A DNA stretch of 26,961 nucleotides from the NCBI GenBank assembly GCA_003561665.1, contig PWVY01000169.1, positions 1 through 26,961 of the forward strand, read 5' to 3'. Below, one piece after another: positions 1-20,269 of the stretch. Position 1 is the stretch's first letter, and every line of letters begins with the position of its first letter. The notes under the pieces are model-generated. The model was given only the letters and a program-made list of their open reading frames with translations, searched no databases and was not told where the DNA came from. Source of the DNA: Thermoplasmata archaeon (lineage in GTDB: Archaea; Thermoplasmatota; SW-10-69-26). The position numbers and the translations under genes were made by a program.

Positions 1-218
1 CATCCTTCGGCGCGTGCGAGGAGGTTTCGTGCGACGGTGGCTTCGATGGGGTCGTCTTGGGGTGTGGTCGCGATGAGGTGGAGGGGTTGGCCGGGTTCGA
101 GTTGGTCGAGGGCGTAGAGGACGGTGTCGTTCATGGCGGGGACGTCTTCGATGGGGATGACGATGCCGCCGCTGGGGGTGGGTGCGTCCTGGGGGGGTTC
201 GCCCGGGTGCTCCTCCAT
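1..218 (-). CDS. Universal stress protein (UspA)-like protein, N-terminal part; runs off the window edge
   Basis: Manual translation from ATG at 218: MEEHPGEPPQDAPTPSGGIVIPIEDVPAMNDTVLYALDQLEPGQPLHLIATT...; this fits the USP beta1-alpha1-beta2 pattern (IVIPIE...TVLYAL...LHLI). Not in the ORF track because it is truncated. Confidence 0.5.
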   Translation of the reverse strand, partial: MEEHPGEPPQDAPTPSGGIVIPIEDVPAMNDTVLYALDQLEPGQPLHLIATTPQDDPIEATVARNLLARAEG

Positions 219-276
219 GTTCGTCCCTTGGGGGGCGCGTCGCGTCGTGCGTGGGGTCCGGCGGTGGGTTGCGTGG

Positions 277-282
277 TTAAAA
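277..282 (-). promoter_or_regulatory. Putative TATA box (TTTTAA) for the USP-like gene
   Basis: AT-rich hexamer in a very GC-rich intergenic region, about 60 bp upstream of ATG 218. Confidence 0.35.
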
Positions 283-385
283 GCCGGTTGGGTCCCTGCG
301 TTGCGATGCGGCGCGGCCCGGGCTGGGCATATCCGCGGTGTAGAAAAGCGTTCGCCTTGCGGAGGGCGTGGGTGGGGGGGTTGGC

Positions 386-1579
386 TTAGTAGAGGTTCTC
401 TTCGATGAATTCGCGGCTTGGGTTGGAGAGGTTTTCTTCTTTGACGCGTCGGACTTTTCGTTCGAGGCGGTCGACGGCGAGGCGTGTGGCGTGTTTCATG
501 CCCCATCCTTCGCCGACGGCGTAGAAGTTGCCCATGTCGCTGGAGAGGTTGGTGCGGATGTGCCAGAGGTCGCGTTTGCGGTTCTTGTCTTTGTGTCGTT
601 TGGCGTGGATCTGGAGCAGGGCGGGTTCGAGGCGTTTTTGGTAGCGGCGCATGAACTCGCGGACTTCTTCGGGGGCGCCGCTGCTTTCGTACCCGTCGCG
701 GCTGGTGTCTTTGCTGGAGAAGTGGACAACGATCTGTGGAACGTCCGGGTCGAGGAGTCGGATGGGGTTGAGAAGGTCGCGCCGGGTGACGATGCCGTAG
801 GGGAATTCGCCGTCTTTGGTGATGACGACGCTGCCGATGGTTTTCTCGTGCATCAGTTCGCTGGCGTCCCTGTAGGTCGATCCTCGGGGCACGTTGACGA
901 CGGGGCTTGACATGATGCTTTTGAGGGGGATCCCGAGGGGTCGGTCTTTTTCACCGCTGCCGGTTTTCCATCCGCCGCGGTCGGAGCCGCGGAGGGGTTG
1001 GATGACTTGGCGGAGGATGTCGTGGACGGTCACGATGCCGACGAGTCTTCCGTCTTCGACGATGGGGAGGTGGCTGAAGCCGTCGGTGCGCATCATGCTA
1101 AGGGCTTTGGCGACGCTGTCGTCGGCGTTTGCGAGGATGACATCTTGCGTCATGTCGTCGGCGAGGTCGCGGTCGCCGAGGCTGGTTTGTCCTGCAGCGT
1201 GGATAATGTCTTCGCGTACGAGGATGCCTTGGACGCGGTGGACGTTGTCCTCTTTTTGGACGACGGCGAGGCTTCGCGCGTTGCTGTCGAGGATCAAGCG
1301 TACGGCTTCGATGAGGTCGTCATCGGGGTGAACGGTGGGAATCTCGTGCTCGGGGAGGCCGTTGGAGACGCGCGCTTTGCCGGGGTCGAGTTGGGTTCGA
1401 AGGTAGTCGCGTTCGCTTGCGATGCCGAGGTATCGGCCTTTGTCGTCGGTGACGACGACGGCGGGTTCGCGATCTTTGGCGAACGCGGAGAGGATTTGGC
1501 TGGCGCGTTCGTCGGGGCGAACACTTTGGAAGTCTGTGCGCATGACATCCGAGACGGTGAGGTCGAAAAGGTCGGGCAC
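386..1579 (-). CDS. Four-CBS-domain protein with a C-terminal HPF/RaiA-like domain (Hib-type ribosome hibernation factor candidate)
   Basis: Four CBS repeats ending in GIASERDYL, GILVREDII, GIVTVHDIL and GIVTRRDLL. The C-terminal ~100 aa (QIVVHF...LQIHAK...WHIRTNL...FYAVGEGWGMKHATRLAVDRLERKVRRVKE) match the HPF beta-alpha-beta-beta-beta-alpha pattern. GTG start with GGAGG upstream. Confidence 0.8.
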   Translation of the reverse strand: MPDLFDLTVSDVMRTDFQSVRPDERASQILSAFAKDREPAVVVTDDKGRYLGIASERDYLRTQLDPGKARVSNGLPEHEIPTVHPDDDLIEAVRLILDSNARSLAVVQKEDNVHRVQGILVREDIIHAAGQTSLGDRDLADDMTQDVILANADDSVAKALSMMRTDGFSHLPIVEDGRLVGIVTVHDILRQVIQPLRGSDRGGWKTGSGEKDRPLGIPLKSIMSSPVVNVPRGSTYRDASELMHEKTIGSVVITKDGEFPYGIVTRRDLLNPIRLLDPDVPQIVVHFSSKDTSRDGYESSGAPEEVREFMRRYQKRLEPALLQIHAKRHKDKNRKRDLWHIRTNLSSDMGNFYAVGEGWGMKHATRLAVDRLERKVRRVKEENLSNPSREFIEENLY

Positions 1580-1693
1580 GGGTCCTGGTTAGGTGGCCTC
1601 CCCATGATAGGAGTTGCGGGAGCGGCCGGGGGTGTTTTCCCCGAGGTGCGATGGCCAAACATATTCGTTGTTGGCTTGGGGTGGGGTGTTTGC

Positions 1694-2623
1694 ATGTGTC
1701 GTTTCGTTGCGTACCATGGCCCGCCGATCCGGTTGGCCGAGCTTTTGTACGAGCCGGAGCATAGCCTGATTCATCAGAGCGTGAACGCGCAGGAGCGCAA
1801 GGAGCCGTTGAACGGGGATGGGTGGGGGGTGGGGTGGTATGATCGGCGTGTGAGCGAGGAGCCGGGGGTGTATCGGACGTTGCATCCGGCGTGGTCGGAT
1901 GATAATATGCGGTATGTGGCGCCGGTGGTTCGTACGCCGACGTTCTTGGCGCATGTTCGTGCGGCGTCGCCGGGGTTGCCGGTGCAGCAGTTGAATTGTC
2001 ATCCGTTCCCGGGGGGGCGTGCGGTGAACGGTGATGGGCGGGCGAAGAAGGATGTGGATGCGGTGGAGCGCGGGCGGCGCAAGTTGTTGTTCATGCATAA
2101 TGGGGCGTTTGGGGCGTATCGGAAGGTGATTCGGAAGTTGCAGAACGAGTTGGATGATGACGTGTTCTTCGGGGTCCGTGGTTCGACGGATAGTGAGCAT
2201 GTGTTTGGGGCGTTCCAGCAGGTGTTGGGGGATCGGGCGGCGGATTTGTCGGTGGATGCGTTGGCGGATGCGACGGTGGAGACGTTGTCGTACATTGACG
2301 CGTTGAAGTGGGAGGTGGGGGAGGAGTCGGCGTCGACGCAGGCGAATTTTTGTGTGAGCGATGGGGAGAGTTTGGTGGCGACGCGGTATCGTCATCCGAC
2401 GGATGAGCCGGCGCAGTCGTTGTACGTTGCGCGGGCTCGTGCGTTCCATTGTGAGGATGGGGAGTTTCGTAGCGAGGAGCCGGGGGAGGAGGGAGCGGTG
2501 TTGATCGCGAGCGAGCGGTTGTGGGATGAGGAGAGCGTGTGGGAGAAGGTTCCGCAGAACCACATGGTGAAGGTGAACCCGGCGCGTGAGGTTTCGATCG
2601 AGGAGATCAAGCCGTCCCCGTAG
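1694..2623 (+). CDS. Class II glutamine amidotransferase / Ntn hydrolase (EgtC/YafJ/Dug3-like), 309 aa
   Basis: Starts MCRF (N-terminal Cys nucleophile); motifs NGDGWGVGWY, AHVRAAS, NCHPF, FMHNG, GSTDSE, ASERL. The start is ATG 1694, not the upstream 998 start of the ORF track. Confidence 0.88.
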   Translation: MCRFVAYHGPPIRLAELLYEPEHSLIHQSVNAQERKEPLNGDGWGVGWYDRRVSEEPGVYRTLHPAWSDDNMRYVAPVVRTPTFLAHVRAASPGLPVQQLNCHPFPGGRAVNGDGRAKKDVDAVERGRRKLLFMHNGAFGAYRKVIRKLQNELDDDVFFGVRGSTDSEHVFGAFQQVLGDRAADLSVDALADATVETLSYIDALKWEVGEESASTQANFCVSDGESLVATRYRHPTDEPAQSLYVARARAFHCEDGEFRSEEPGEEGAVLIASERLWDEESVWEKVPQNHMVKVNPAREVSIEEIKPSP

Positions 2624-2656
2624 GGCTTTCGTGCGGCTTGTCGTTGCGCGTGTTTT

Positions 2657-3025
2657 CTATGTTTGTGCGTCGTCGAAGGCGCTGAAGCCTGCGGGGATAG
2701 CTTCGTAGAAAACGGTGGCTTTGAGGGTGAACGTGGTATCGATGGCGATCTCAGGGCGTGCGAAGGCGGTCCACGTGCATTCGTCTTCGTTGGAGCATTC
2801 GGCTTCGAGCGTGGCCTCATCGAGAGTCAAGCGTAGGTAGTTATTCAGCGTGATGTCTCCGGGTTCGGTCGCGCTGTAGGTTCCTTCGTTGCTTCCGGCG
2901 TGGAAAATTAGGGGACAGAGGATGGATTCGGTGAGTCCACCAGCGCAGAAGCCGGGTGGGAGGGTGAAATCCAGCCTTCTCCAGGGCCGGGGAGAGGGGT
3001 CGGTGCGTTCGTTGCATGTGAGTCG
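2657..3025 (-). pseudogene. Start-less 122-codon open frame, probably a fragment of a secreted or surface protein gene
   Basis: Stop-to-stop frame (TAG at 3026-3028, TAG at 2657-2659) reading ...LDFTLPPGFCAGGLTESILCP...LEAECSNEDECTWTAFARPEIAIDTTFTLKATVFYEAIPAGFSAFDDAQT. It looks protein-like, but the only canonical start is an internal TTG about 57 codons from the end. Confidence 0.35.
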
Positions 3026-3069
3026 CTAGGGTTTATGCTGGGTTGGTGCATGCGCGGCGCGTGGTCGAT

Positions 3070-3330
3070 GTGAAGGTCTTGTCTCGGGCGGCTTCGTGGA
3101 CGTGCCTTTTGTTGTTGATCGGGTCCTTGTTCGCGTTCCCTGCTGGAGCGTTGGGTGGGGGCGTGGATGCGGCTCAGGAGGATGAGGATCATCCTGAGGC
3201 GGAGCCGGGGCCGGATGAGGAGCCCACGTGGATCCGCGTGGGGTTCGTGCTCGTGATGGCGCCGTTCTTGGTGGGGTTGGGCGCCGCGGTCGTGTACTTG
3301 GTTTATCGGGCCTTGCGGTACGAGATTTAA
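3070..3330 (+). CDS. Small membrane protein (signal peptide, acidic linker, C-terminal TM helix), about 86 aa
   Basis: GTG 3070: MKVLSRAASWTCLLLLIGSLFAFPAGA...QEDEDHPEAEPGPDEEP-TWIRVGFVLVMAPFLVGLGAAVVYLVYRALRYEI. TTTATG element at 3032-3037. Confidence 0.6.
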   Translation: MKVLSRAASWTCLLLLIGSLFAFPAGALGGGVDAAQEDEDHPEAEPGPDEEPTWIRVGFVLVMAPFLVGLGAAVVYLVYRALRYEI

Positions 3331-3343
3331 CGCGGAGGGGCGT

Positions 3344-4750
3344 TCAGCGGTCGGTCCATTCGATGTCGTATTCGTCCTGGTGTTCGTGGAGGAAGGCTTC
3401 GAGGCGTTTCATGGGGAGGGGGGGCATCAGGGCGTTCCTTGCGGGGATCTTCTCGGGGATCTCTTCGTGGTATTTGGTGTAGAGGCCGAAGTCGAGGGGG
3501 TAGGCTTCGGGATCCATGCCGAGGAATTCGCCGCGTCGTTGGGCGCGGTTGAGGATGCTTTCCCAGCGTTCGATGGGGGCTTGGGCGGCGCTTCGGACTC
3601 CGTTGGAGAACGCGAGGAGATGGATCTCGTCGAAGGGGTCGGAGCGTTCGAGGTAGGCTTCGAGGGCTTCTGCGCTGTCTTCGCCGTTGAAGGGGATCCA
3701 GTAGGGGACGCTTCCGGTGCGTTGGCTCCACCAGGGGTCGATGCATGTGAAGCTTTGGACGAGCAGTCGGTTGGTGGGGATGTCGTGTTCGCCGTAGCGT
3801 TCGCGGTGGAGGTCGGCGACGGGGGCCCTGAGGTGGCGGGGATCTTGGAAGCGTAAAAGGCGCACGGGGTAGCCGTGGTCGTTGGCGAAGCGGTCGATGT
3901 CGTCGAGGAGGATGTCTTCGAAGCCCCATTCGGCTTCGGGGGCGGTGTCGTTGGGTTCGGGCGCGTCCCAGGAGGCGTTCTCTTCGGGTCGTGAGGCGAT
4001 GAAGGCGGCGACGCGGTCGCTTCCTTCGAGGTATTCTTCGGGGGTGAGGCCGCCTTCGCCGCTGTATTGGAAGACGTGCCGGTCGTTGATGCGGGTGACG
4101 GGTTTGGGGTCATCGCAGTCGATGACGATGATGCTTCCGCCGGGGGCGAGGGTTTCTTTGATGAAGCGTTCGTAGGCGTGGCCGAGTTTCCTGGTTTTCA
4201 GGCGGAAGTAGGCGAACTCGCGGACCATCAGCCAGTCTTCGTTGGGGTCGTGCATGTGGTTGAGGTTGATGTCGGGGTTGGCTTCGAGGAGGGCGCGTCC
4301 GGGTCGTCGGCCCCATTCCATGTCGTCTTCGCCGTTGCCGGGTCGGATCTTCCGGCGCACGGGTGTGAGGAAGGTTTGGGGGAGGAAGGGGATGCCCAGG
4401 AGGGCGGCGAGGAAGGTTCCGGCCCCGTTGGGGGATCCGATCATGATGGCGGGGTAGCCGCGTTCGGGGTATTGCTCGGTGACCCATTCGCGGAAGGTTT
4501 CGATGTTCACATCGCCTAACTCGCTGGGTTGGATGGCTTCGGTGGCTCCGCTTTTGCGGTAGATCCATTTCTTGGTTTTCTCAGGGAGGCGGTTGGGGGC
4601 GCGTCCGAGGCCTGCCAGGGGTTTGGGGATCATGCCCAAGCGGGGGAAGCCTTCGCCTTGGAGGTGGTGGGCGAGGGCTCGCACGAAGGCGGTTGTGCTG
4701 TCGAAGTTGGCAAGGCCCAGGGGCGATTGGGAGGATTGCAATAACCGCAT
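3344..4750 (-). CDS. Conserved hypothetical protein, 468 aa, soluble and enzyme-like
   Basis: Long ORF with coding-type codon bias; motifs IGSPNG, HMHDPNED, PEAEWGF, AFSNGV. ATG 4750 is preferred over the ORF-track start at 4852, which overlaps the HEPN gene. Confidence 0.8.
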   Translation of the reverse strand: MRLLQSSQSPLGLANFDSTTAFVRALAHHLQGEGFPRLGMIPKPLAGLGRAPNRLPEKTKKWIYRKSGATEAIQPSELGDVNIETFREWVTEQYPERGYPAIMIGSPNGAGTFLAALLGIPFLPQTFLTPVRRKIRPGNGEDDMEWGRRPGRALLEANPDINLNHMHDPNEDWLMVREFAYFRLKTRKLGHAYERFIKETLAPGGSIIVIDCDDPKPVTRINDRHVFQYSGEGGLTPEEYLEGSDRVAAFIASRPEENASWDAPEPNDTAPEAEWGFEDILLDDIDRFANDHGYPVRLLRFQDPRHLRAPVADLHRERYGEHDIPTNRLLVQSFTCIDPWWSQRTGSVPYWIPFNGEDSAEALEAYLERSDPFDEIHLLAFSNGVRSAAQAPIERWESILNRAQRRGEFLGMDPEAYPLDFGLYTKYHEEIPEKIPARNALMPPLPMKRLEAFLHEHQDEYDIEWTDR

Positions 4751-4844
4751 CAGGCCCTTGGTAGAGAGGGGATGCAAAAGTGGGGGGCGAAACGCTGGCT
4801 TCGGTTCGAAAACGACGTTTGGTGGGGGACAGGCCTGCCCCGCG

Positions 4845-5270
4845 TTAGTCAAGCCTGTCGAGGATCGTTTCGATGAAGCGAGGGATATCGTTCACATCGT
4901 CATTCAGGAATCGATGAATCTGGGCGTCATCGATGTCCCAGTAGATGTGGACCAAGCGGTTTCGGAAGCGTGCCATCTCTCCAAGACGGGTTGCGAAGGC
5001 GTCGTCGAGCACGTTCTCTTCAGCAAGCACACGGAAGGCGTCGGCGTAATCGTCGGCTGCTCTGAACTCGTTGGCCGCGATGAGGTGGTTTGCCAGGTCG
5101 ATGCATCCTTCGATCGCCACGATGAGCTGGTACTTTGCATTCCCAATCTTGTCAGCGTCGTTCAAGAAGGACTCTTGGGGAAGGCCCCCGATCTCCTGGA
5201 GGGTCCGCGATGCTTTCCGGACCTCGGAGACGAAGCGAGTGACGCGATCCAGGTCACGATTCAAGCCCAA
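4845..5270 (-). CDS. hepT: HEPN/DUF86 (HepT-like) RNase toxin
   Basis: RX4HXY motif RNRLVHIY; N-terminal AKYQLIVAIEGCIDLANHLI typical of DUF86. TTG start with AGGAG upstream; overlaps the MNT stop. Confidence 0.9.
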   Translation of the reverse strand: MGLNRDLDRVTRFVSEVRKASRTLQEIGGLPQESFLNDADKIGNAKYQLIVAIEGCIDLANHLIAANEFRAADDYADAFRVLAEENVLDDAFATRLGEMARFRNRLVHIYWDIDDAQIHRFLNDDVNDIPRFIETILDRLD

Positions 5271-5685
5271 GAGCTTCTCTCCTGTACGATTCTCGATGGT
5301 AGCTAAAGTCCTGGTAGAGCTTCATGGTTCCTTCCTCGAAGTCCAACCGTTGATCTTCCGATCGTGAGAAGATACGGTGTCCATGCTGGATCACAGCGAA
5401 ACGGAACGGTAACGGGGCATGGTTGAGGGTTCTCACATCCATGGGCAAGTCGCGCACATGGTCACTCAAGGCCTGCTCGATCCCCAGCTCGCGATCCAAG
5501 CACTCGTCCTCTGTCAGGTCATCCCTGAGGAGAACGGCGACGTCGACGTCTCCGACCGTTGGACGCTCCTGCATCATGGAGCCGTGCACGTACGCCAAGA
5601 CCACGTCAGGATCCTCCTCAAGATGGGAACGGAGGTTTCGAACGATCCGCTCCCGGTCTTTGGATCCCAGACGGTGGCGCTCCAT
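5254..5685 (-). CDS. mntA: Minimal nucleotidyltransferase (MntA-like) antitoxin, 143 aa
   Basis: AYVHGS...GDVDVAV nucleotidyltransferase motif, DVRTLNHAPLPFRFAVIQHG; directly upstream of and overlapping the HEPN gene. Confidence 0.9.
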   Translation of the reverse strand: MERHRLGSKDRERIVRNLRSHLEEDPDVVLAYVHGSMMQERPTVGDVDVAVLLRDDLTEDECLDRELGIEQALSDHVRDLPMDVRTLNHAPLPFRFAVIQHGHRIFSRSEDQRLDFEEGTMKLYQDFSYHRESYRREALGLES

Positions 5686-5949: not shown

Positions 5950-6387
5950 TCAAGCCTTTTCGGTTGACGGGCTTCCTGTCTCCCGCGTTGGATCCTCCCT
6001 CTTTGTGCTTGATCGACCCAGCGCCATGCATGCTAGCACGTCGGCTTGCAACTGGCCAAGGAAGCGAGAGACGATGATGAAGAAGATCGAGGAGAACGTT
6101 ACCACCAACGCCAACACCGCGGTCACGATCGCGGCCACGCCGTACTGCGCTGCCCATCCTGGAAGCAGCGCGGCTGCACCGCCAAGGGCAGCCAGGAGGG
6201 TGGCCACGACGACCAACCCGATGATCGTCGCGCGGGCCGCGACGGCGACCTTCAACCCTTTCGCGCGTTTCTCCAGGATCGACCGGTAGGGCTCCTCGAA
6301 CTCGTCAAGGTTATCCTCGACGGCTTCCACGAGGTGCAAGTACCCCGTTTTCCAGTACCAACGCCATGAGGACTCGAACGGGAACAT
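5950..6387 (-). CDS. Hypothetical membrane protein (2 TM helices), 145 aa
   Basis: ATG 6387 with an AT-rich element about 25 bp upstream; two long hydrophobic segments (TIIGLVVVATLLAALGGAAALL; GVAAIVTAVLALVVTFSSIFFIIV). Confidence 0.6.
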   Translation of the reverse strand: MFPFESSWRWYWKTGYLHLVEAVEDNLDEFEEPYRSILEKRAKGLKVAVAARATIIGLVVVATLLAALGGAAALLPGWAAQYGVAAIVTAVLALVVTFSSIFFIIVSRFLGQLQADVLACMALGRSSTKREDPTRETGSPSTEKA

Positions 6388-6450
6388 GCCGCCGTATCAA
6401 GCCTCCTTATGAAAGGAGGCCCGGTTCTCGTTGGGGTCCCGTCCAGGCCC

Positions 6451-6462
6451 AAAACGGTTAAA
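6451..6462 (+). promoter_or_regulatory. BRE/TATA (AAAACGG-TTAAA) of the drg gene
   Basis: About 30 bp upstream of ATG 6492, the spacing expected for a near-leaderless archaeal transcript. Confidence 0.5.
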
Positions 6463-6491
6463 CCGCGAAGGCGCCCCTCATGAGGGTACGG

Positions 6492-7607
6492 ATGGGCGCC
6501 ATCGAAGACCAGATCGAGGAGATCGAGCAGGAGATAGCGGATACGCCCTACAACAAGAGCACACAGAAGCACATCGGCCGGTTGAAAGCCAAGCTCGCCA
6601 AGCTCAGGGACAAGAAGGAGAAACGGCAAGAGGCCAGCGGAGGCGGTGGAGGTGGGTACGACGTCAAGAAAAGCGGCCATGCAAGCGTGGGCCTTGTTGG
6701 CTTCCCCAGCGTGGGCAAAAGCACGCTCTTGAACGCGCTCACCAACGCTGAAAGCGAGGTGGGCGAGTACGAGTTCACCACGCTCGACGTGGTCCCCGGC
6801 ATGATGGAGCACAACCACGCCAACATCCAAGTCCTCGATTTGCCCGGGTTGATCCACGGCGCCAGCGCCAACAAAGGCCGCGGGCGCGAGGTCATCAGCG
6901 TGGCCCGCAACTGTGACTTGATCGTGCTCGTCATCGACCCCTGGAACAAGGATCAACTCGACGTTGTGACCGGGGAGTTGTACAACGCCGGGATACGGTT
7001 GAACATGAAACCGCCGAACGTGAAGGTGAACACGGACCGCATGCAGGGCGGGTTGAAGATCAGCTTCACCGTGGACGCTCCCGAACTGGATGCTGGGCTG
7101 GCCGAGGAGATCATGGATGAGTGGGGGTACGTGAATGCGGACCTGGTCGTGCGCGAGGACATCACACCGGACGAGCTCGTGGACGTTCTCGCGGGGAACC
7201 GTATCTATCAGCCCGCCATCGTGGCCATCAACAAGATCGACGCGGCCGCCCCCAAGATCGTGGAAGAACGCATCAACGAGCTCGAAGAGGAAGGATGGCG
7301 GGTTCTGCCCATCAGCGCGGACGCGGAAGAGAACCTCGAAGCCCTCAAGGAAGCCATCTATGAAGAGATGGACCTCATCCGTTTGTACATGAAACCGCAA
7401 GGCCAAGACGCGGACATGGAGGAGCCCCTCGTCGTCCGACGCGGAAGCACCGTGGGCGAAGTGTGCGATCATTTGCACCGGGAGATGCGGGACCGGTTTC
7501 GGTACGCGATGGTCTCTGGGCCTTCCAGCAAGTTCCCCGACCAACGCGCAGGCCTCGACCACGTGCTCGAGGACGGGGACGTGCTCACGCTCATCACGCG
7601 CAAGTGA
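6492..7607 (+). CDS. drg: DRG/Rbg1-family OBG-class GTPase with C-terminal TGS domain, 371 aa
   Basis: N-terminal TPYNKSTQKHIGRLKAKLAKL, G1 GFPSVGKST, G2 YEFTT, G3 DLPG, G4 NKID, TGS end GLDHVLEDGDVLTL. Confidence 0.95.
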   Translation: MGAIEDQIEEIEQEIADTPYNKSTQKHIGRLKAKLAKLRDKKEKRQEASGGGGGGYDVKKSGHASVGLVGFPSVGKSTLLNALTNAESEVGEYEFTTLDVVPGMMEHNHANIQVLDLPGLIHGASANKGRGREVISVARNCDLIVLVIDPWNKDQLDVVTGELYNAGIRLNMKPPNVKVNTDRMQGGLKISFTVDAPELDAGLAEEIMDEWGYVNADLVVREDITPDELVDVLAGNRIYQPAIVAINKIDAAAPKIVEERINELEEEGWRVLPISADAEENLEALKEAIYEEMDLIRLYMKPQGQDADMEEPLVVRRGSTVGEVCDHLHREMRDRFRYAMVSGPSSKFPDQRAGLDHVLEDGDVLTLITRK

Positions 7608-7692
7608 TCCCTCGACAGGCCGCCCGGTGATGCATCGAACAAACGCGGTTCCAGGCGTTCCTGTAGGCTCCTGAGCACTCGAGCCGGACAAC

Positions 7693-8369: not shown

Positions 8370-9170
8370 CTAGCCCTCCAGACGGACACGCTCGATGCCC
8401 CACGCGTCCAACCGTTCCGCGATCTTAGCCTCCTCGTTCGTCGCATCCGGCTGCAACACGTACCCCTCACACCCCGGGATTTGATCCAACGCCTCCTGAA
8501 GCGTACCATCCTCGACCCCCTGACTCACCGCCCACCCTGGGATGACGTGCCCGGGCACGATCTCGCCCGCTCGCACCGCATCGTTCACCTGCGGACAATA
8601 ATGCCCACCCCCCACCCACAACACAGGCGTCCCAGAAACGGGGCTTGCATCCAACAAGGCCTCAGCCAGAACCCGCGCAGCCTCCTCATCGTTCCACGCC
8701 TCTTCGTCGCTCCCCAACTCGTAGAACAACGTTGGCACCTCCACATAGGGCCCATGGTGCGTGGCCTCGTACGTCACCTCGTACCCCGCAGGGTCCGCCT
8801 TCACCAACGCCTCGAACAACCCCGCCATCCACGAGGGATGCGAGGGCGCCACCTGGCCCTTTTTGCCCCCGTACGGCGCATCCGCGAAGTTCCCGATCGG
8901 GTGAACGCTCATTGTCGGCGTCCCCGACTCGCTCGCATGACGAGACAAGAACACCACGACCTCCGGATCCTCCAAACTCGGCGGCAACCGCTTGTCCACA
9001 TTCTCGTTCGTGATGTGCAACTCCTCGATCGTCACCAACCGGAAATCCTCGTGAGCAAGGATCCGGTTCCCCTCGAACAACCCCTTCTCCTCCCACGAGA
9101 CCAGCTCACGCAAACGATCCGCGATGTTCACGCTAGCCGGGTCTTCCGTGCACTCCACGAGGACACGCAT
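8370..9170 (-). CDS. dtdA: Archaeal D-aminoacyl-tRNA deacylase (DTD2/DUF516), 266 aa
   Basis: DPASVNI, FLSRHASES, SVHPIGN, EATHHGP, FYELGS and GGGHY motifs; GGTG-rich Shine-Dalgarno before ATG 9170. Confidence 0.92.
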   Translation of the reverse strand: MRVLVECTEDPASVNIADRLRELVSWEEKGLFEGNRILAHEDFRLVTIEELHITNENVDKRLPPSLEDPEVVVFLSRHASESGTPTMSVHPIGNFADAPYGGKKGQVAPSHPSWMAGLFEALVKADPAGYEVTYEATHHGPYVEVPTLFYELGSDEEAWNDEEAARVLAEALLDASPVSGTPVLWVGGGHYCPQVNDAVRAGEIVPGHVIPGWAVSQGVEDGTLQEALDQIPGCEGYVLQPDATNEEAKIAERLDAWGIERVRLEG

Positions 9171-9279
9171 CACCCCACCACGCGCCCTCCTGTTTTTCAA
9201 CGTACCGCCCACGCGTCGAACAAGAAGCAACGAAACAAACAGCCCTCACCTCTTTACGCAGCCTTCGCATCCCGGCCGC

Positions 9280-10719
9280 GTGGACGCAGCCAAGAACCCT
9301 CTCGAACTCGACGAGGCAACCCTGACCGAGATCATCGAACAAACCACACAACGCATCCTCCACCACCTCGAAACCCTCCCCCAACAACACGCCGCCTACG
9401 ACGAAGACCCCGAAACCATCGCCCAACGCTTCCACGAACCCCACCCCCCCGACGAACCCACACCCCCAGGCGAACTCCTCGACCACCTCTTCAACGACGC
9501 CATCCCCCCCTCCCTCAACACGCCCCACCCCGGGTACCTCGCCTACATTCCCGGCGGCGGCCTCCCCCACGCCGCCATCGCCGACCTCATCAGCGACACC
9601 ACCAACCGCTACATCGGCACCAACTTCGCCGCCCCCGCCCTCACCCGCATCGAAGCCAACGTAATCGAATGGTTCTGCCGCATCGTCAACTACCCCAACA
9701 CCGCCTTCGGCATCCTCACCACCGGCGGCTCCATGGCCAACCAAACCGCCATCACCACCGCCCGCCATCACCACCTCGGCGAAACCTTCCTCAACGGCAC
9801 CGTCTACGCCAGCGACCAAACCCACCACAGCATCACCAAAAGCTGCACCCTCGCCGGCATCCCCCAAGACAACGTCAAAAAGATCCCCACGGACAACGCA
9901 TACCGCATAGACCCCAACGCGCTCGAAACCACCATCCACGAAGACCGGTCCAACGACCTCGACCCCTTCCTCATCGTCGCCAACGCCGGCACCACCAACA
10001 CCGGCGCCATCGACCCCCTCCCCCAACTCGCCACCCTCGCAGAACAAGAGAACCTGTGGCTCCACGCCGACGCCGCCTACGGCGGCTTCTTCACCCTCAC
10101 CCCCGACGGCGAACAACGCCTAAGCGGCATCGAGAAAGCCCACAGCATCACGCTTGACCCCCACAAAGGCCTCTTTTTACCCTACGGAACCGGCTGCCTC
10201 CTCGTCAAAGACCCCACAACCCTCCAAGACACCCACACCGCTCGCGCAGACTATCTCCCCAACACGACAACCAACACCCTCCTCCCCGACTTCAGCCACC
10301 TCAGCCCCGAACTCTCCAGGGATTTCAGAGGCCTCCGCATCTGGCTCCCCCTCAAGATGCACGGCCTAGAACCCTTCAAAGCGAACCTCCAAGAGAAACT
10401 CGACCTCGCAAGGTTCACCCACGAACAACTCCAACAACGCCCCCACATCACCATCACGGCCAAACCCCAACTCTCCACGCTCGCCTTCCGCTGGGAACCC
10501 CCACACCTCCCCCCCGACGACCATGATCACGCCAACCAGGACCTTCTCAACCGCATCAACAAGAAAGGCAACGTGCACATCTCCGGGACCACCCTCAACG
10601 ACGCGTTCACCCTACGCGTCAGCATTCTCTCCTTCCGAACCCACCAAGAACACATCCAACGCTTCCTCACCGACCTCGACGAAGCCATCCAAGAATCCAC
10701 CCCCGAACAGCAACGCTAA
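9280..10719 (+). CDS. Group II PLP-dependent decarboxylase (aromatic-L-amino-acid/glutamate decarboxylase family), 479 aa
   Basis: HPGYLAYIPGGG, TTGGSMAN, NAGTTNTGAIDPL, WLHADAAYGG, SITLDPHK (PLP lysine), ELSRDFRGL. GTG 9280 with TTTACG about 27 bp upstream. Confidence 0.92.
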   Translation: MDAAKNPLELDEATLTEIIEQTTQRILHHLETLPQQHAAYDEDPETIAQRFHEPHPPDEPTPPGELLDHLFNDAIPPSLNTPHPGYLAYIPGGGLPHAAIADLISDTTNRYIGTNFAAPALTRIEANVIEWFCRIVNYPNTAFGILTTGGSMANQTAITTARHHHLGETFLNGTVYASDQTHHSITKSCTLAGIPQDNVKKIPTDNAYRIDPNALETTIHEDRSNDLDPFLIVANAGTTNTGAIDPLPQLATLAEQENLWLHADAAYGGFFTLTPDGEQRLSGIEKAHSITLDPHKGLFLPYGTGCLLVKDPTTLQDTHTARADYLPNTTTNTLLPDFSHLSPELSRDFRGLRIWLPLKMHGLEPFKANLQEKLDLARFTHEQLQQRPHITITAKPQLSTLAFRWEPPHLPPDDHDHANQDLLNRINKKGNVHISGTTLNDAFTLRVSILSFRTHQEHIQRFLTDLDEAIQESTPEQQR

Positions 10720-11778: not shown

Positions 11779-12948
11779 TTAATCTGACTTCTCATCGATG
11801 GGTGGGAGCGTGAACGAGAAGGTCGTGCCCTCTCCCGGTGTGGAGTCGACCTCGATCGTGCCGCCATGCCGCTTGATCACGCGTTGGCACACTGCCAGGC
11901 CCACGCCGGTCCCCTCGACGTTGTTGTCGTGGGTTCCTCTTCGGAAGATCCGGAAAAGATCCGCTTGCTCTTCCTTGGGGATCCCTTCCCCGTTGTCTTC
12001 AACGTGTACGCAGATCATCCCGTTCTTCGAGGGTTCGGCGTGGATGGTGATGCGTGGCCTTTCCTTGCTGTATTTGATGGCATTGTCCACGAGGTTCTGG
12101 AAGACGTGCATCAGCTGGCCCCCATCGCCGAGGACGGTCCCCAAAGTGTCCACGTCGACGATGGCGTTGGCTTCGTCGATGGCAACGCGAAGGTTCCCTA
12201 AGACCTCCTCCACGACGTCCTCAAGCGCCACAGGTTCTTGGTCCCGGCCTTGTGCTTGCACGCGAGAGTACTCAAGCAACCCTTGAACCATCTCGCGCAT
12301 GCGCCGGGTGCCGTCCATCGCGTACGAGACGTACTCTGTGGCTTCCTGATCCAGAGCCTCCCCGTGGCCCTCCACGAGGAGCGCGAGGTAGCTTTCCGTC
12401 ATCCGGAGCGGTTCTTGGAGATCGTGCGAGACGACGGACGCAAAATCTTCGAGGACTTCGTTGGATTGTTCGAGGCTTCGTGCTTTCTCCGCGAGGCGCT
12501 GCTCGGCTTGCTTACGCGCCTGAAGTTCGCGAGCCATCTTCCGATGGGCTTCCGTGAGGTCGTCGTGGAGAGCGAGCACGCGGTCCTGGAGCTTTCGATG
12601 GTCTTCCGGGTCGTGTTCGGCGAAAAGCACGAGGTGATCGCCATGGCGGTGCACGGCGCCGTCCAACGAGGTGGCCTGTTCTCGTCCTTGGCCGCCCACG
12701 TTGAGGATCCCCTCGTACGTGAGGGCCCACCCGGCGTCTTGCGCTCCTTGGGTGAGGCGTTTGAAGGGAGGCTGCACGAACAGGGTGGTGGGGTCTTCTA
12801 ACCCGGCCTCGCCCTCGGCATCAAGAAGACGGTGGAAGCCTTCGTTGGCTTCCACGAGGCCACCGTCGATCGTGAAGATGGCCGCCACGACGGATCCAAG
12901 ATCCTCCAAGATGGAGGGTATCTGCTCCCTGAACGGGGGCGTGGTCAT
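11779..12948 (-). CDS. Sensor histidine kinase (PAS-like domain, coiled coil, HisKA, HATPase), 389 aa
   Basis: H-box SHDLQEPLR, N-box FQNLVDNAIKY, G1 DNGEG, G2 GTGVGLA; PAS-like N-terminus (AIFTIDGGLVEANEGFHRLL); no TM segment. ATGA overlap with the upstream B12-binding gene. Confidence 0.93.
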   Translation of the reverse strand: MTTPPFREQIPSILEDLGSVVAAIFTIDGGLVEANEGFHRLLDAEGEAGLEDPTTLFVQPPFKRLTQGAQDAGWALTYEGILNVGGQGREQATSLDGAVHRHGDHLVLFAEHDPEDHRKLQDRVLALHDDLTEAHRKMARELQARKQAEQRLAEKARSLEQSNEVLEDFASVVSHDLQEPLRMTESYLALLVEGHGEALDQEATEYVSYAMDGTRRMREMVQGLLEYSRVQAQGRDQEPVALEDVVEEVLGNLRVAIDEANAIVDVDTLGTVLGDGGQLMHVFQNLVDNAIKYSKERPRITIHAEPSKNGMICVHVEDNGEGIPKEEQADLFRIFRRGTHDNNVEGTGVGLAVCQRVIKRHGGTIEVDSTPGEGTTFSFTLPPIDEKSD

Positions 12949-13628
12949 GCTTGAACCGCCTCGATGGCCTCTTGGATGCTTCCCCCCCAACCGTCCGCAT
13001 CGAGGGATGCGATCCCGTCATTATCGGGAAGGCTGCCGCCGATGAGGATCTCCGGCTGAGGCTCACCCAGGGCCCGGATGGCGGACACGGCGTCCTTCGC
13101 AGTGGCCAGATGCCCGTCCAGGGAGAGCGAAAGGCCCACGATGTCGGGACGCCATCGGTCGACCATGTCCACGAGAGCACGCGTGGGAACGTCCGCTCCG
13201 AGGGTCCGCGTTTCCCACCCATAGAGTTCGAAAGCGTCCCCGAGCACGTTCAACCCGAGCTCATGATGGTTGCCTTCCACGCATGCCAAGAGGATGCTCT
13301 TGCCTTGATCAGTCACGATGGAAAGGTTCACGATCTCGCTCGCGATGACGCTCTTCATGGTGGCTGTCGCGAGGTGTTCTTCTGCGACTGAGACTTCTCC
13401 TCTCTCCCAGCACGCACCCACGTGACTCATCGCAGGCTGGACGAGCCCGTCGATGGTGGCCAGGAACGAGCCAGTGTCCTCTAGGTGGCGGGTGAAGATC
13501 TGGCTTGCGGTTCGCCGGTCACCCTCGAGCAAGGTATCCACGAGTGTTTGGATGGACGCATCGAGGTCGGCGGAGGCCGAACCCTGTGTGGTTTCGTCAT
13601 GATCTAACATCGTGAACCCTGTCCTCAC
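12945..13628 (-). CDS. Stand-alone cobalamin-binding protein (four-helix cap plus Rossmann B12 domain), CarH/AerR-like, no DNA-binding domain
   Basis: W-x9-EH (WERGEVSVAEEH) and NxHxxG-x41-SxS-x27-GG. AAGGAGG Shine-Dalgarno 4 nt before GTG 13628; alternative ATG at 13610. Confidence 0.9.
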   Translation of the reverse strand: MRTGFTMLDHDETTQGSASADLDASIQTLVDTLLEGDRRTASQIFTRHLEDTGSFLATIDGLVQPAMSHVGACWERGEVSVAEEHLATATMKSVIASEIVNLSIVTDQGKSILLACVEGNHHELGLNVLGDAFELYGWETRTLGADVPTRALVDMVDRWRPDIVGLSLSLDGHLATAKDAVSAIRALGEPQPEILIGGSLPDNDGIASLDADGWGGSIQEAIEAVQA

Positions 13629-13705
13629 GTTGCCTCCTTGAGTACTTCAACCTGACCCTAGCCTCCTTGCCTGCTTGAACGAGGCCCTAGGCGGGGTTTA
13701 TGGAG

Positions 13706-14779
13706 TCAAGAGCGCGTTATGGTGAGTTCGCCTTCGTTATCGTATTCGAAGGTGAGCGTGTCGCGCTCTGCGAGGCGTTCTTTGTTTTGGAAGAGGGCCG
13801 TGGCGAGTAGGGTGAGCCCGATGGTGGCATCGCAGTACGCGGTGGCTTTCGTTGCGTTCTTGGCGATCTTTCCCCAGGATTGGCCTTCTTCGAGGGTGCA
13901 TCCGCTTAGGCCACCCCAGTGGGGGGCATCGGCGGTGATCTGCACGGCGTATTGGTGACCGCCGGGTTCGTACCCGAGGATCTCGCTGATGACCTCGGTT
14001 TGTTGGATGTAGTTCTTGGGGGTTCCGCCGGCGATGTAGGCGACCATCGTTTTCTCGCTTTTGTACTTGATCTGCGCGAGCTCGTAGGCGTCCTGAATCG
14101 GATCCAGGGTAGGGATGGTTCGGCCTTCGTGTTTGGCTTTCACCATCTCGTGCACCATGCCGATGCCAAGGCTGGAATCGTTCACGGCGGGGCAGAACAG
14201 GGGCGTGTTGGTGCGGTTGCACTGGACGACGAGGCTTTCCTCGTCGTCGAAGTGCTCTCCTAGGTAGTGGTACAGTTCTCGGCTAGTGATGGTGTCTTCG
14301 TCGAGTTTGCCTAACAGTTCGCCGAGGTATCGGTCGGTGGCTTGGAATTTCTCTTCGTCCACGAGCGTGTCGTAGAGGCGGTCGAGGTAGAGTTCGCGCA
14401 GCTTGACGTCGTCCATCTCGGGGGTGGCTTTCCAGTGGTCGTGGTCCTCGCCCATGGCTTGGTAGAGGTCTTGGTAGGGTTGGGAGCCTGCGCTTACGAC
14501 CACGTCGACAAGGCCGTGTTCGACGAGGCGGGAAAGGACGCGCCGCATGCCTCCGGCGATGAGGGACCCGGCGATGCCGAGGATAATGGTGGGGCGTGCG
14601 GGGTCTTCGAGAGCGGCTTGCCAGACCTTGAGGCATTCGCCGAGGCTCCGGGCCTGGAAGCTCATGCCCGCCATCCCATCGAGGAGTTCGTGCACGGTGT
14701 CGACGTTGGCGGGATCGACCTGATGAACGGGGACGCTTAGCAGGTTCTCGCGCGTGTAGAAGCCCTCGTCGTCCTTCAT
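13706..14779 (-). CDS. dys: Deoxyhypusine synthase family protein, 357 aa
   Basis: AGSLIAGGMR, PAVNDSSLG, GGTPKNYIQQ, GGLSGCTLEEGQSWGK (catalytic Lys), YCDATI. ATG 14779. Confidence 0.88.
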   Translation of the reverse strand: MKDDEGFYTRENLLSVPVHQVDPANVDTVHELLDGMAGMSFQARSLGECLKVWQAALEDPARPTIILGIAGSLIAGGMRRVLSRLVEHGLVDVVVSAGSQPYQDLYQAMGEDHDHWKATPEMDDVKLRELYLDRLYDTLVDEEKFQATDRYLGELLGKLDEDTITSRELYHYLGEHFDDEESLVVQCNRTNTPLFCPAVNDSSLGIGMVHEMVKAKHEGRTIPTLDPIQDAYELAQIKYKSEKTMVAYIAGGTPKNYIQQTEVISEILGYEPGGHQYAVQITADAPHWGGLSGCTLEEGQSWGKIAKNATKATAYCDATIGLTLLATALFQNKERLAERDTLTFEYDNEGELTITRS

Positions 14780-14909
14780 GGGAGCACTCGGCGGGTCCAG
14801 GAGGAAGGAGGCTAAAGGTGCTACCCTCAACCCTACGCTACCCCCCACCCATGACAATTCATAGCAAGGGTCATCTATGGGGGCGACCAAGAGAACCATG
14901 GTGAACCCC

Positions 14910-15155
14910 GTGCCCAAGTACATGGATGTCCACAAGATGGAGGGAATCACGGCCGAAGATGCAGCGCACGCCCACAGGGCGGATTTGAAGATCCAAGGGA
15001 AGCACGGAGCTCGGTTCCTGCGCTATTGGGTGAACGAAGAGGAAGGCGTCGTGTTCTGTCTAAGCGAAGCACCCACGAAGCAAGCCGCGCTGGATACGCA
15101 CGAGGAAGCCGGTCACCCTCCGGATGAGATCTTCGAGGTCATCGAGAGAGAGTGA
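14910..15155 (+). CDS. DUF4242 / SCO4226-like small nickel-binding protein, 81 aa
   Basis: MPKYMDVH...AHAHRADL...FLRYWV...VFCLSEAP...THEEAGH; GGTGA Shine-Dalgarno before GTG 14910. Confidence 0.85.
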   Translation: MPKYMDVHKMEGITAEDAAHAHRADLKIQGKHGARFLRYWVNEEEGVVFCLSEAPTKQAALDTHEEAGHPPDEIFEVIERE

Positions 15156-19393: not shown

Positions 19394-19508
19394 TCAACGC
19401 GTTTGAGGTCTCGCCAGGAGGGATGGGGAAAGATGCTGGGACCCTGGATGGTGCATCGCGACGAGGGTCCAAAAATCGATACCGTGTCCCCCTTGCGTCG
19501 TGGGGCCG

Positions 19509-19529
19509 GGCTTCAACGAAGCCTTTAAT
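19509..19529 (+). promoter_or_regulatory. Palindrome GGCTTC-AAC-GAAGCC abutting the TATA box TTTAAT of ccdA
   Basis: Inverted repeat at 19509-19523; TTTAAT at 19524-19529, 30 bp before ATG 19559. Confidence 0.45.
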
Positions 19530-19558
19530 GCGCGCGCAGGAACCACGGGACTGCCCTG

Positions 19559-20269
19559 ATGGTCGTCGATGTCGCGCTGGTCGCGTTCGCGTTGAGCGTG
19601 GGAGCAGCCACGTTCTTTAGCCCATGCGCTGTCGCGCTTCTCCCCGCCTACGCGGCGTTCTTCACAGGCACAACCAGCAGGGAACGTGATGCTCGACCGT
19701 TGTTCGAGTCCGCGTGGATGGGCGCCCGCTTCGGGGCTGCTGCCGCGGTGGGTGCGCTTTTCCTCTTCGTGGTAGGCACAGCGGCTGTCTTCCTTCTTCG
19801 GACCCAGTTGGGGGTCGTGCAGACGCCCGAGCTGGCGAGAGCGTTCACGGTGTTGGGTGTGGGCGTGGGCGTCGTGCTGATCGGTCTTGGCGTGTTGATG
19901 CTCTCGGCGCGAGCGCCGAGCGTGACGCTCCCTTTGCGGGCGCCGGAGCGGAAAACGATGGGCGCGATGGTGACGTTCGGGGGCCTTTTCGCGTTGGGGA
20001 GCATGGCGTGCACGCTCCCGTTGTTGTTTGGCGTGATCGGGGCTGCGATCACGCAACCGCCGGCGGGGAGCGTGCTTGTGATGGGTGCATACGGTGTGGG
20101 GCTTGCGGGGCTCTTGTTCGTTGCAAGCGTGGCGTTAAGTGTTGCTGAGGATCAGGCTCGAACGTACATCCGGCGAGCGCAACGGTACGTGAAACCGGTG
20201 GGGGGAGCCTTGTTGGTCGGTGCCGGCGCGTTCGTTGTGTATTACTACGTTCGGTATGGGTTCTGGTGA
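19559..20269 (+). CDS. ccdA: CcdA/DsbD transmembrane thiol-redox protein
   Basis: Six hydrophobic helices; FFSPCAVALLPAY and MACTLP carry the two redox cysteines. Confidence 0.88.
   Translation: MVVDVALVAFALSVGAATFFSPCAVALLPAYAAFFTGTTSRERDARPLFESAWMGARFGAAAAVGALFLFVVGTAAVFLLRTQLGVVQTPELARAFTVLGVGVGVVLIGLGVLMLSARAPSVTLPLRAPERKTMGAMVTFGGLFALGSMACTLPLLFGVIGAAITQPPAGSVLVMGAYGVGLAGLLFVASVALSVAEDQARTYIRRAQRYVKPVGGALLVGAGAFVVYYYVRYGFW

Follow-up and report, generated by a model that had tools for sequence, protein, structure and literature searches.

A putative B12-dependent light-sensing pair of a stand-alone cobalamin-binding protein and a soluble histidine kinase in a halophilic Thermoplasmatota archaeon

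The stretch analysed here, 26,961 nucleotides (nt) of contig PWVY01000169.1 from the Thermoplasmata archaeon assembly GCA_003561665.1, is referred to as the window. On its minus strand, between positions 11779 and 13628, two genes overlap, of which the first encodes a stand-alone cobalamin-binding protein (CBD) and the second a soluble histidine kinase. An initial annotation of this DNA had described them as a B12-dependent photoreceptor coupled to a PAS histidine kinase, and the list of open reading frames (ORFs) places both genes where that annotation had put them. Residue numbers of the CBD are those of the 227-amino-acid (aa) protein of the window unless stated otherwise, and loci and genomes used for comparison carry numbers beginning with L and G. 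The features of the two genes are:

12945 to 13628, minus strand: stand-alone CBD, 227 aa, GTG start and TGA stop (ORF, Pfam and AlphaFold2)
13633 to 13637, minus strand: GGAGG, Shine-Dalgarno-like, 5 nt 5′ of the GTG start of the CBD gene (read from the sequence)
13341 to 13550, minus strand: four-helix cap, B12-binding_2, residues 27-96 (Pfam PF02607, E 1.5e-16)
13374 to 13409, minus strand: adenosyl-pocket motif W74-x9-E84-H85, preceded by G71 (GxxW; regular expression)
13008 to 13298, minus strand: Rossmann-type B12-binding domain, residues 111-207 (Pfam PF02310, E 1.1e-16)
13263 to 13265, minus strand: lower-ligand H122 of the CBD (motif search and alignment)
12945 to 12948, minus strand: ATGA overlap of the CBD stop TGA (12945-12947) and the kinase ATG (12946-12948; read from the sequence)
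11779 to 12948, minus strand: soluble histidine kinase, 389 aa (ORF, Pfam HisKA and HATPase_c)
12610 to 12915, minus strand: PAS-like N-terminal domain of the kinase (kinN), residues ~12-113 (model and Foldseek; Pfam silent)
12442 to 12609, minus strand: long signalling helix linking kinN to the H-box, residues 114-169 (AlphaFold2 model)
12253 to 12450, minus strand: HisKA dimerisation/phospho-acceptor domain, residues 167-232, with H-box S174-H175-DLQEPLR (Pfam and motif)
11803 to 12129, minus strand: HATPase_c catalytic domain, residues 274-382, with N, G1, F and G2 boxes (Pfam E 7.9e-32)

The two proteins and their domains

The only Pfam domains found in the CBD are B12-binding_2 and B12-binding. 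In the AlphaFold2 model (predicted local distance difference test, pLDDT, 89.9) the helices of the cap span residues 18-34, 38-52, 55-75 and 81-99. Only about 25 residues precede the cap, and Pfam detected neither a MerR nor any other helix-turn-helix domain in the protein, in line with the initial annotation. An alternative ATG start for the gene lies at 13610. The W-x9-EH motif and the base-off motif that had been reported were both recovered by regular expression, the latter with exact spacing: G119-N-H-H122-E-L-G125 is followed after 41 residues by S167-L-S169 and after 27 more by G197-G198. The motifs of the Rossmann domain are S167xS169 and G197G198, as well as G144xxxP148.

A published signature of light-responsive CBDs consists of GxxW, EH, GxxH and GxxxP (PMC11796333, SignatureFinder). 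All four motifs are present in the CBD of the window (G71-A-C-W74, E84-H85, G119-N-H-H122 and G144-A-D-V-P148), with EH following ten residues after the pocket tryptophan. When 33 CBD relatives were aligned, G71, W74, E84, H85, H122 and also G144 were invariant, and P148 was nearly so. Among solved structures, the best relatives by sequence were two photocobilins, namely SasPcob (8J2W/8J2X, E 1e-18, 30-31% identity), for which a response to light has been shown by experiment, and AbPcob (8J2Y), followed by the corrinoid proteins 4JGI and 1Y80 (~1e-14), CarH (4e-12), MttC (5e-8) and MetH (~1e-6). W74, E84-H85 and H122 align onto W61, E71-H72 and H108 of SasPcob, in which the first three are pocket residues and His108 is the lower ligand (PMC10979010).

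The structural comparison gave a similar picture. Template modelling (TM) scores of the CBD model were 0.79-0.80 with the CBD of CtMerR (8JBS/8JBT), 0.76-0.79 with the photocobilins (8J2W/X/Y) and 0.64-0.71 with CarH. The methyl carriers 4JGI and MttC reached only ~0.5, because their cap is placed differently. TIGR02370, the model of methyltransferase corrinoid proteins, gave 40.2 bits against a cut-off of 215.3, and the NCBIfam models of MtbC and MtaC gave 46 bits (cut-off 350) and 39.5 bits (cut-off 450), respectively. The NCBIfam CarH model scored 68 bits against a cut-off of 400 and covered profile positions 84-256 only, which is the CBD part. In a maximum-likelihood tree, the clade of the window's CBD (support 100/100) was the sister, at 97/96, of a clade of 61 mostly photoglobin-fused CBDs and was not nested inside it. 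Together with the matches to 8J2W/X/Y, the tree suggests that the CBD belongs with the photocobilin clade. The four motifs, the photocobilin relatives and the low TIGR02370 score argue for a protein of the photoreceptor type, as first annotated, and not for a corrinoid protein of the methyl-carrier type. Judged from its sequence, the CBD carries every hallmark of B12 light sensors and would be expected to respond to light.

The stop codon of the CBD gene and the start codon of the kinase gene share an ATGA, and the overlap reported at 12945-12948 was confirmed. The kinase is acidic (isoelectric point 4.75), and its HisKA and HATPase_c domains both score above the Pfam cut-offs. Its catalytic boxes are complete, with QNLVDNAIKY, DNGEG, FRIF and GTGVGL at residues 284, 318, 332 and 346, and H175 is the phospho-acceptor. 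A transmembrane segment is unlikely, as the maximum Kyte-Doolittle mean over 19 residues was 1.39. Pfam, motif search and hydropathy therefore agree with the description of a kinase that has a HisKA-HATPase core and an SHDLQEPLR H-box and lacks a transmembrane segment. The same H-box had also been taken as a mark of phytochrome-type kinases; this did not hold, since five kinases of the window's genome share it exactly.

No PAS family matched residues 1-165 of the kinase in Pfam, even at E<=1, so that the fold of this region had to be modelled. The AlphaFold2 model, built from 13 homologues (pLDDT 82), shows a beta2-helices-beta3 arrangement followed by the long helix 114-169, which leads into the H-box. 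The strands (20-26, 31-34, 75-84, 93-102 and 105-112, with the helices between them) follow a five-stranded PAS topology. The top 40 Foldseek matches were all PAS domains, among them 8PX4, 3BWL, PYP and phytochrome PAS domains, with probabilities of mostly 0.96-1.0 and otherwise weak scores (E 2e-3 to 2e-2, TM ~0.5). Moreover, the N-Q-PAS1 region of PpsR (4L9G, 4HH3) matched kinN together with the helix across ~156 columns, again with weak scores. The PAS domain of the initial annotation is thus supported as a modelled fold, whereas it has no counterpart among the Pfam families, and we refer to the domain as PAS-like and name it kinN. In the signalling helix, L131 and R136 of the kinase were invariant (alignment A1). 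A word-indexed search with kinase residues 1-170 returned the window's own protein only.

Recurrence of the gene pair and of kinN

The closest relatives of the CBD, which were taken from a protein collection, are 213-259 aa long, share 49-54% identity over the aligned sequence and come from metagenomes only. Scans of metagenome and GTDB contigs with the CBD gave only distant relatives with at most 45% identity, all bacterial where the organism was named. In all five related clusters examined (L064-L070 and L121-L123), the CBD gene overlaps the next gene by 4 nt. This gene encodes a kinase of 386-394 aa in three clusters and is shortened by the contig end in the other two, which harbour the same kinN. 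The kinN domains of the five are 43-45% identical to that of the window, and the three full-length kinases share the catalytic core at 46-54%. Because a PhzF gene lies upstream in all five and G002, which belongs to the window's family, is a close match of one of them, we counted these clusters as one lineage. The window has a deoxyhypusine synthase (DHS) gene in place of PhzF and therefore represents a second context for the pair. A further genome of the family also carries the pair (L054), and the 4-nt overlap was found in two bacterial loci as well (L127 and L128). The neighbourhood survey proposed with the initial annotation thus recovered the gene pair in five of five related clusters and in L054; as the 4-nt overlap recurs in every related cluster examined, the pairing is more than chance.

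At the level of the phylum the distribution is patchy. Among 301 Thermoplasmatota genomes sampled, kinN was present in five, all of the window's class. In G002 (locus L131, G002:C1:14743-18216) the orthologous kinase is intact, but only ~57 aa remain of the CBD encoded upstream of it, which corresponds to an in-frame deletion of 486 nt relative to L069 (positions 2246-2731). The deletion may reflect an allele that naturally lacks the CBD, or else a collapse in the assembly. The same genome encodes a photoglobin-B12 protein (L053:1111-2121, G002:C43) in which the pocket reads EY (GRRW...AEEY) at the position of the otherwise invariant EH; no kinN partner adjoins it.

We also followed kinN into distant lineages. 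With a threshold of E<=1e-3, a profile search of 1.8 billion representatives gave 1637 clusters; at E<=1e-10 the number was 531. KinN nearly always lies at the N-terminus and is joined to outputs that include kinases, hybrid kinases and GGDEF; in two proteins a MEDS domain lies ahead of it. Searches with hidden Markov models (HMMs) found kinN directly downstream of CBD genes and joined to GGDEF in L019 (Synergistota-like), L080 and L129. Downstream of CBD genes it is likewise joined to a Cys4 domain at the C-terminus in L087, L124 and L052, the last of these from a genome of the window's class, and it forms part of plain or hybrid kinases in L004 (Gemmatimonadota), L127 and L128. When four kinN proteins were picked blind to their context, three (L127, L128 and L129) directly followed a CBD gene with an overlap of 1 or 4 nt, the upstream B12 proteins being 350-360 aa long; the fourth (L125) had no CBD gene upstream. 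Seen from the other side, kinN was the partner at 19 of the 81 signature-bearing CBD genes with enough downstream sequence. The chief argument for a functional link by way of the PAS-like domain and helix, and not of the catalytic core, is that kinN mostly occurs together with CBDs, while the partners of CBDs vary. Comparative genomics thus backs the functional link between B12 protein and kinase suggested by the initial annotation, and places it more precisely at the N-terminal PAS-like domain and helix of the kinase.

Some of these loci are of interest in themselves. The Cys4 output (L052:2187-2798, L124:2178-2825 and L087:2411-3028) is a C-terminal module of ~45 aa with two CxxC pairs, follows the pattern LPIC..CKK...W......H.......IC..C and has no Pfam match. 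In L127 (GCA_036704275.1, JBAJGS010023379.1:44166-51458) a photoglobin-B12 gene overlaps the gene of a kinN kinase, which is followed by genes for a receiver-PAS protein, KaiB and a KaiC-like ATPase; this arrangement may provide a B12/bilin light input to a Kai-type timing system. A fusion of CBD and kinase in L004 was considered and ruled out: the two genes lie in different frames, and the long stop-to-stop frame is an artefact of high GC content.

Outside the window's family, the relatives partnered with kinN have a CBD together with a photoglobin domain of ~130 aa, either fused or encoded by a separate gene. An HMM of the photoglobin domain, for which 54 sequences were used, had no match at E<=10 among 19,461 six-frame ORFs of the window's genome, which is 75% complete, and none at E<=1e-3 in L054, L064, L066, L069, L121 and L122. 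As a positive control, the same HMM matched 35 ORFs, including the split globins of L004 and L056. A single-protein photoglobin query against the window's genome also returned nothing. Judging by these searches, what is new here is a CBD-kinase pair with neither a fused nor a separate photoglobin, as well as the lineage of its host.

Genes of the ABM family (IsdG/MhuD-like, heme-degrading-like) adjoin photoglobin-B12 genes at L129:3226-4273, L128:1631-1930, L052:832-1131 and L124:843-1148, and the L129 operon also encodes a ferredoxin-dependent bilin reductase. These genes fit a supply of bilin from within the operon; the window's locus has none of them.

A putative cobalamin-based sensor kinase

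We consider it rather likely that the two genes encode a minimal two-protein, cobalamin-based sensor kinase. By analogy with its characterised relatives, the CBD would bind adenosylcobalamin (AdoCbl) in the base-off/His-on form through H122, and the adenosyl group would sit under the four-helix cap against W74 and E84-H85, across the interface of a head-to-tail dimer. Such head-to-tail dimers are the probable dark state, as in CarH and SasPcob. Light from the UV to the green would cleave the Co-C bond, free the adenosyl group, remodel the cap and break the dimer, as in SasPcob. Photolysis would then alter the binding of the CBD to the PAS-like domain or helix of the kinase, and the altered contact would switch autophosphorylation on H175, followed by phosphotransfer to a response regulator encoded away from the pair. 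As there is no bilin-binding photoglobin, the system should respond only to wavelengths absorbed by B12. For the pair of the window, the identity of the cofactor, the response to light and the direct contact are thus predictions drawn from related systems. Work on the photocobilins has shown more than 10-fold activation of a fused diguanylate cyclase by light; in vitro, stand-alone photocobilins also acted in trans on an isolated cyclase domain, whose activity changed in a light- and concentration-dependent manner (PMC10979010).

Several observations weigh against this reading. The residue after W74 is E75, where CarH has His132, which gives its bis-His light state (PMC4557120); CarH-style photochemistry is thus not to be assumed, and a bis-His light state is unlikely. 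SasPcob likewise has no equivalent of His132 and ends as water/hydroxide-ligated cobalamin (PMC10979010). When the complex of the CBD with kinase residues 1-170 was predicted, scores of 0.08 and 0.02 were obtained against a mark of 0.32, which speaks neither for nor against binding. No response regulator adjoins the pair. PduO-type and CobA-type adenosyltransferases and CobS, which bear on the source of AdoCbl, were not found in the 75%-complete assembly. Among CBD loci fetched without bias, kinN was the partner at only ~6 of 70, a minority arrangement. Furthermore, the CBD had no match in G001, a genome of the same genus that is 88% complete, and the kinase of G002 with its reduced CBD gene suggests that the kinase can exist without the CBD.

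Of the alternatives, the one that survives best is that the module senses the supply of cobalamin with any upper ligand, and not light, for instance to control corrinoid uptake or B12-dependent metabolism. We regard this as unlikely, and yet as a live rival in view of the missing adenosyltransferases and CobS. The genome encodes two large subunits of methylmalonyl-CoA mutase, an AdoCbl-dependent enzyme, so that the organism uses AdoCbl, and the lack of CobS, CobA and PduO would fit a B12 scavenger for which supply matters, although missing biosynthesis genes are weak evidence at 75% completeness. In addition, binding of AdoCbl alone shifts the enzyme activity of AbDPcob relative to the apo protein (PMC10979010). 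However, the conserved residues of the CBD are the ones by which light-responsive CBDs bind the adenosyl group, the operons of the bacterial relatives also encode bilin-making enzymes and photoglobins, an indication of light, and the habitat is a sunlit salt lake. Sensing of supply and sensing of light are also not mutually exclusive.

It is quite unlikely, in our view, that the pair is functional but that the CBD acts on the kinase core (the dimerisation and histidine phosphotransfer, or DHp, and catalytic domains), or serves as a co-expressed dimerisation scaffold, instead of acting through the PAS-like domain. The complex prediction, which gave no interface (0.08 against 0.32), would be compatible with this, and the sensor of AbDPcob works on the catalytic diguanylate cyclase domain itself (PMC10979010). 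The element that stays constant across the pairs is nevertheless the PAS-like domain with its helix, while the output varies between kinase, GGDEF and Cys4. Very improbable, finally, is a corrinoid methyl carrier or other metabolic corrinoid protein with the kinase as a mere neighbour: the JGI pipeline calls CBD relatives 'MtbC1', 4JGI and 1Y80 match at E ~1e-14 and the NCBIfam models of MtgC and MtbC give 46-55 bits, but these scores stay far under cut-offs that range from 215 to 450 bits. The flanking genes examined included no methyltransferase of the MT1 or MT2 type, the CBD family shows no variation in the CarH-type pocket motif, the predicted domain arrangement fits methyl carriers only at TM ~0.5, and the overlapping kinase is kept in every related cluster examined.

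The light-sensing pair that we favour resembles several known systems. Closest are the photocobilins SasPcob and AbDPcob (8J2W, 8J2X, 8J2Y; Zhang et al. 2024, PMC10979010), which share with the CBD the W/EH adenosyl pocket, the lower-ligand histidine and the lack of a His132 equivalent, and which as stand-alone proteins can influence an enzyme in trans, a likeness to the layout of the window. In contrast to them, the CBD of the window has no bilin-binding globin, its partner is a separately encoded histidine kinase and its host is archaeal and halophilic. CarH of Thermus thermophilus and Myxococcus xanthus (5C8A, 5C8D) has the same cap and Rossmann CBD and the same W-x9-EH motif, and shares His-on ligation and B12 as the sole chromophore, both of which are predicted for the window. 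It differs by its MerR domain, by His132 in the place of E75 and by its output, which is release of DNA, whereas phosphorylation is predicted for the pair of the window. In the AerR-CrtJ and AppA-PpsR systems of Rhodobacter, a stand-alone protein of the B12-binding or B12-like SCHIC type controls a second protein, which contains PAS, by binding to it (PMC9144470), but there the partner is a transcription factor and not a kinase. No CrtJ/PpsR-like gene was found among the neighbours examined in the window. The layout is also similar to that of H-NOX proteins with histidine kinases, in which a small cofactor-binding sensor, encoded beside a soluble kinase without a sensor of its own, controls autophosphorylation by protein contact; fold, cofactor (heme) and signal (NO) differ from those of the window's pair.

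The initial annotation had regarded a split B12 two-component input as uncharacterised, which needs to be narrowed. In 2021, a computational survey of bacteria and archaea associated B12-binding domains with genes for PAS proteins, histidine kinases, GGDEF proteins and receivers and proposed that they are light sensors, none of them having been studied experimentally (Schneider et al., PMC8717448), and action in trans has been shown in vitro (PMC10979010); the globin-less form and the host lineage are the new parts. The 2021 survey was anchored on the photoglobin domain, so that globin-less pairs fall outside its search, and it does not define the PAS-like N-terminal domain as a recurring partner (PMC8717448). 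The pair of the window is thus probably a stripped-down variant of a family of light sensors already predicted and partly characterised in bacteria.

More tentatively, kinN with its helix might be a dedicated receiver and, with 1637 clusters, a general adaptor through which stand-alone cobalamin sensors act on kinases, diguanylate cyclases and Cys4 modules. The pair of the window would then be its simplest form, a B12-only, globin-free and light-gated two-component kinase of an archaeon, and the first demonstrated case of a histidine kinase controlled by B12 photochemistry. For B12 photoreceptors, the established outputs are DNA binding (CarH, AerR) and, added in 2024, a diguanylate cyclase; a histidine kinase has so far been a predicted output only. 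With two soluble proteins, one chromophore and no bilin, the pair is a simple test case that separates the contribution of B12 from that of bilin. How stand-alone B12 sensors pass on their signal was left open by the photocobilin paper, and kinN is a concrete lead on this question. The pair is also a possible tool, as a green-light-controlled kinase module for optogenetics, and suggests that an uncultured lineage of halophilic Thermoplasmatota senses light through B12.

Host and neighbouring genes

The source assembly is a metagenome-assembled genome that is 75% complete and consists of 350 contigs with a total of 2.05 Mb. Among public sequencing runs, a salt lake metagenome from 2012 gave the best match, and no RNA run containing the locus was found. 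The neighbours of the pair in the window are archaeal (deoxyhypusine synthase, a DTD2-type deacylase, FKBP26 and a DRG GTPase), and for the beta subunit of succinyl-CoA synthetase (SucC) the best named relative, at 76% identity, is from 'Thermoplasmatales archaeon SW_10_69_26', with Thermoplasmatota as the next named matches. The archaeal origin given in the initial annotation is therefore right, and these genes, together with the salt lake origin of the sample, identify the host as a halophilic member of the Thermoplasmatota and not a haloarchaeon. A host of the class Halobacteria was ruled out by the SucC relatives.

The genome encodes 16 receiver domains, none of them on the contig of the window. 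The CBD of the window is the only PF02310 match in the whole assembly; the small B12-binding mutase subunits were not found, as they probably lie in the unassembled 25%.

The deoxyhypusine synthase gene lies 77 nt upstream of the CBD gene on the same strand, and the two could be co-transcribed. When its ORF (13706-14950, minus strand) is read from the first GTG, a hydrophobic stretch of ~57 aa precedes the Pfam DS domain, and the true start is probably an internal ATG (MKDDEGFY...). Five long ORFs of 220 to 502 aa in the window have no Pfam match at E<=1e-4: 1592-2563 (minus), 3347-4852 (minus), 4572-5303 (plus), 6255-7691 (minus) and 19397-20056 (minus). The ORF at 6255-7691 overlaps the DRG GTPase gene on the opposite strand. 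Some of the five are probably shadow frames caused by high GC content, and others may be real genes. The gene of a pyridoxal phosphate (PLP)-dependent decarboxylase (9124-10719, plus strand) has a coding strand with 45.5% C and 16.5% G, and the local GC skew falls to -0.45; its product contains many T, H, P, Q and N residues, whereas the neighbouring proteins are acidic. Positions 1-5000 of the window show a similarly strong skew of the opposite sign.

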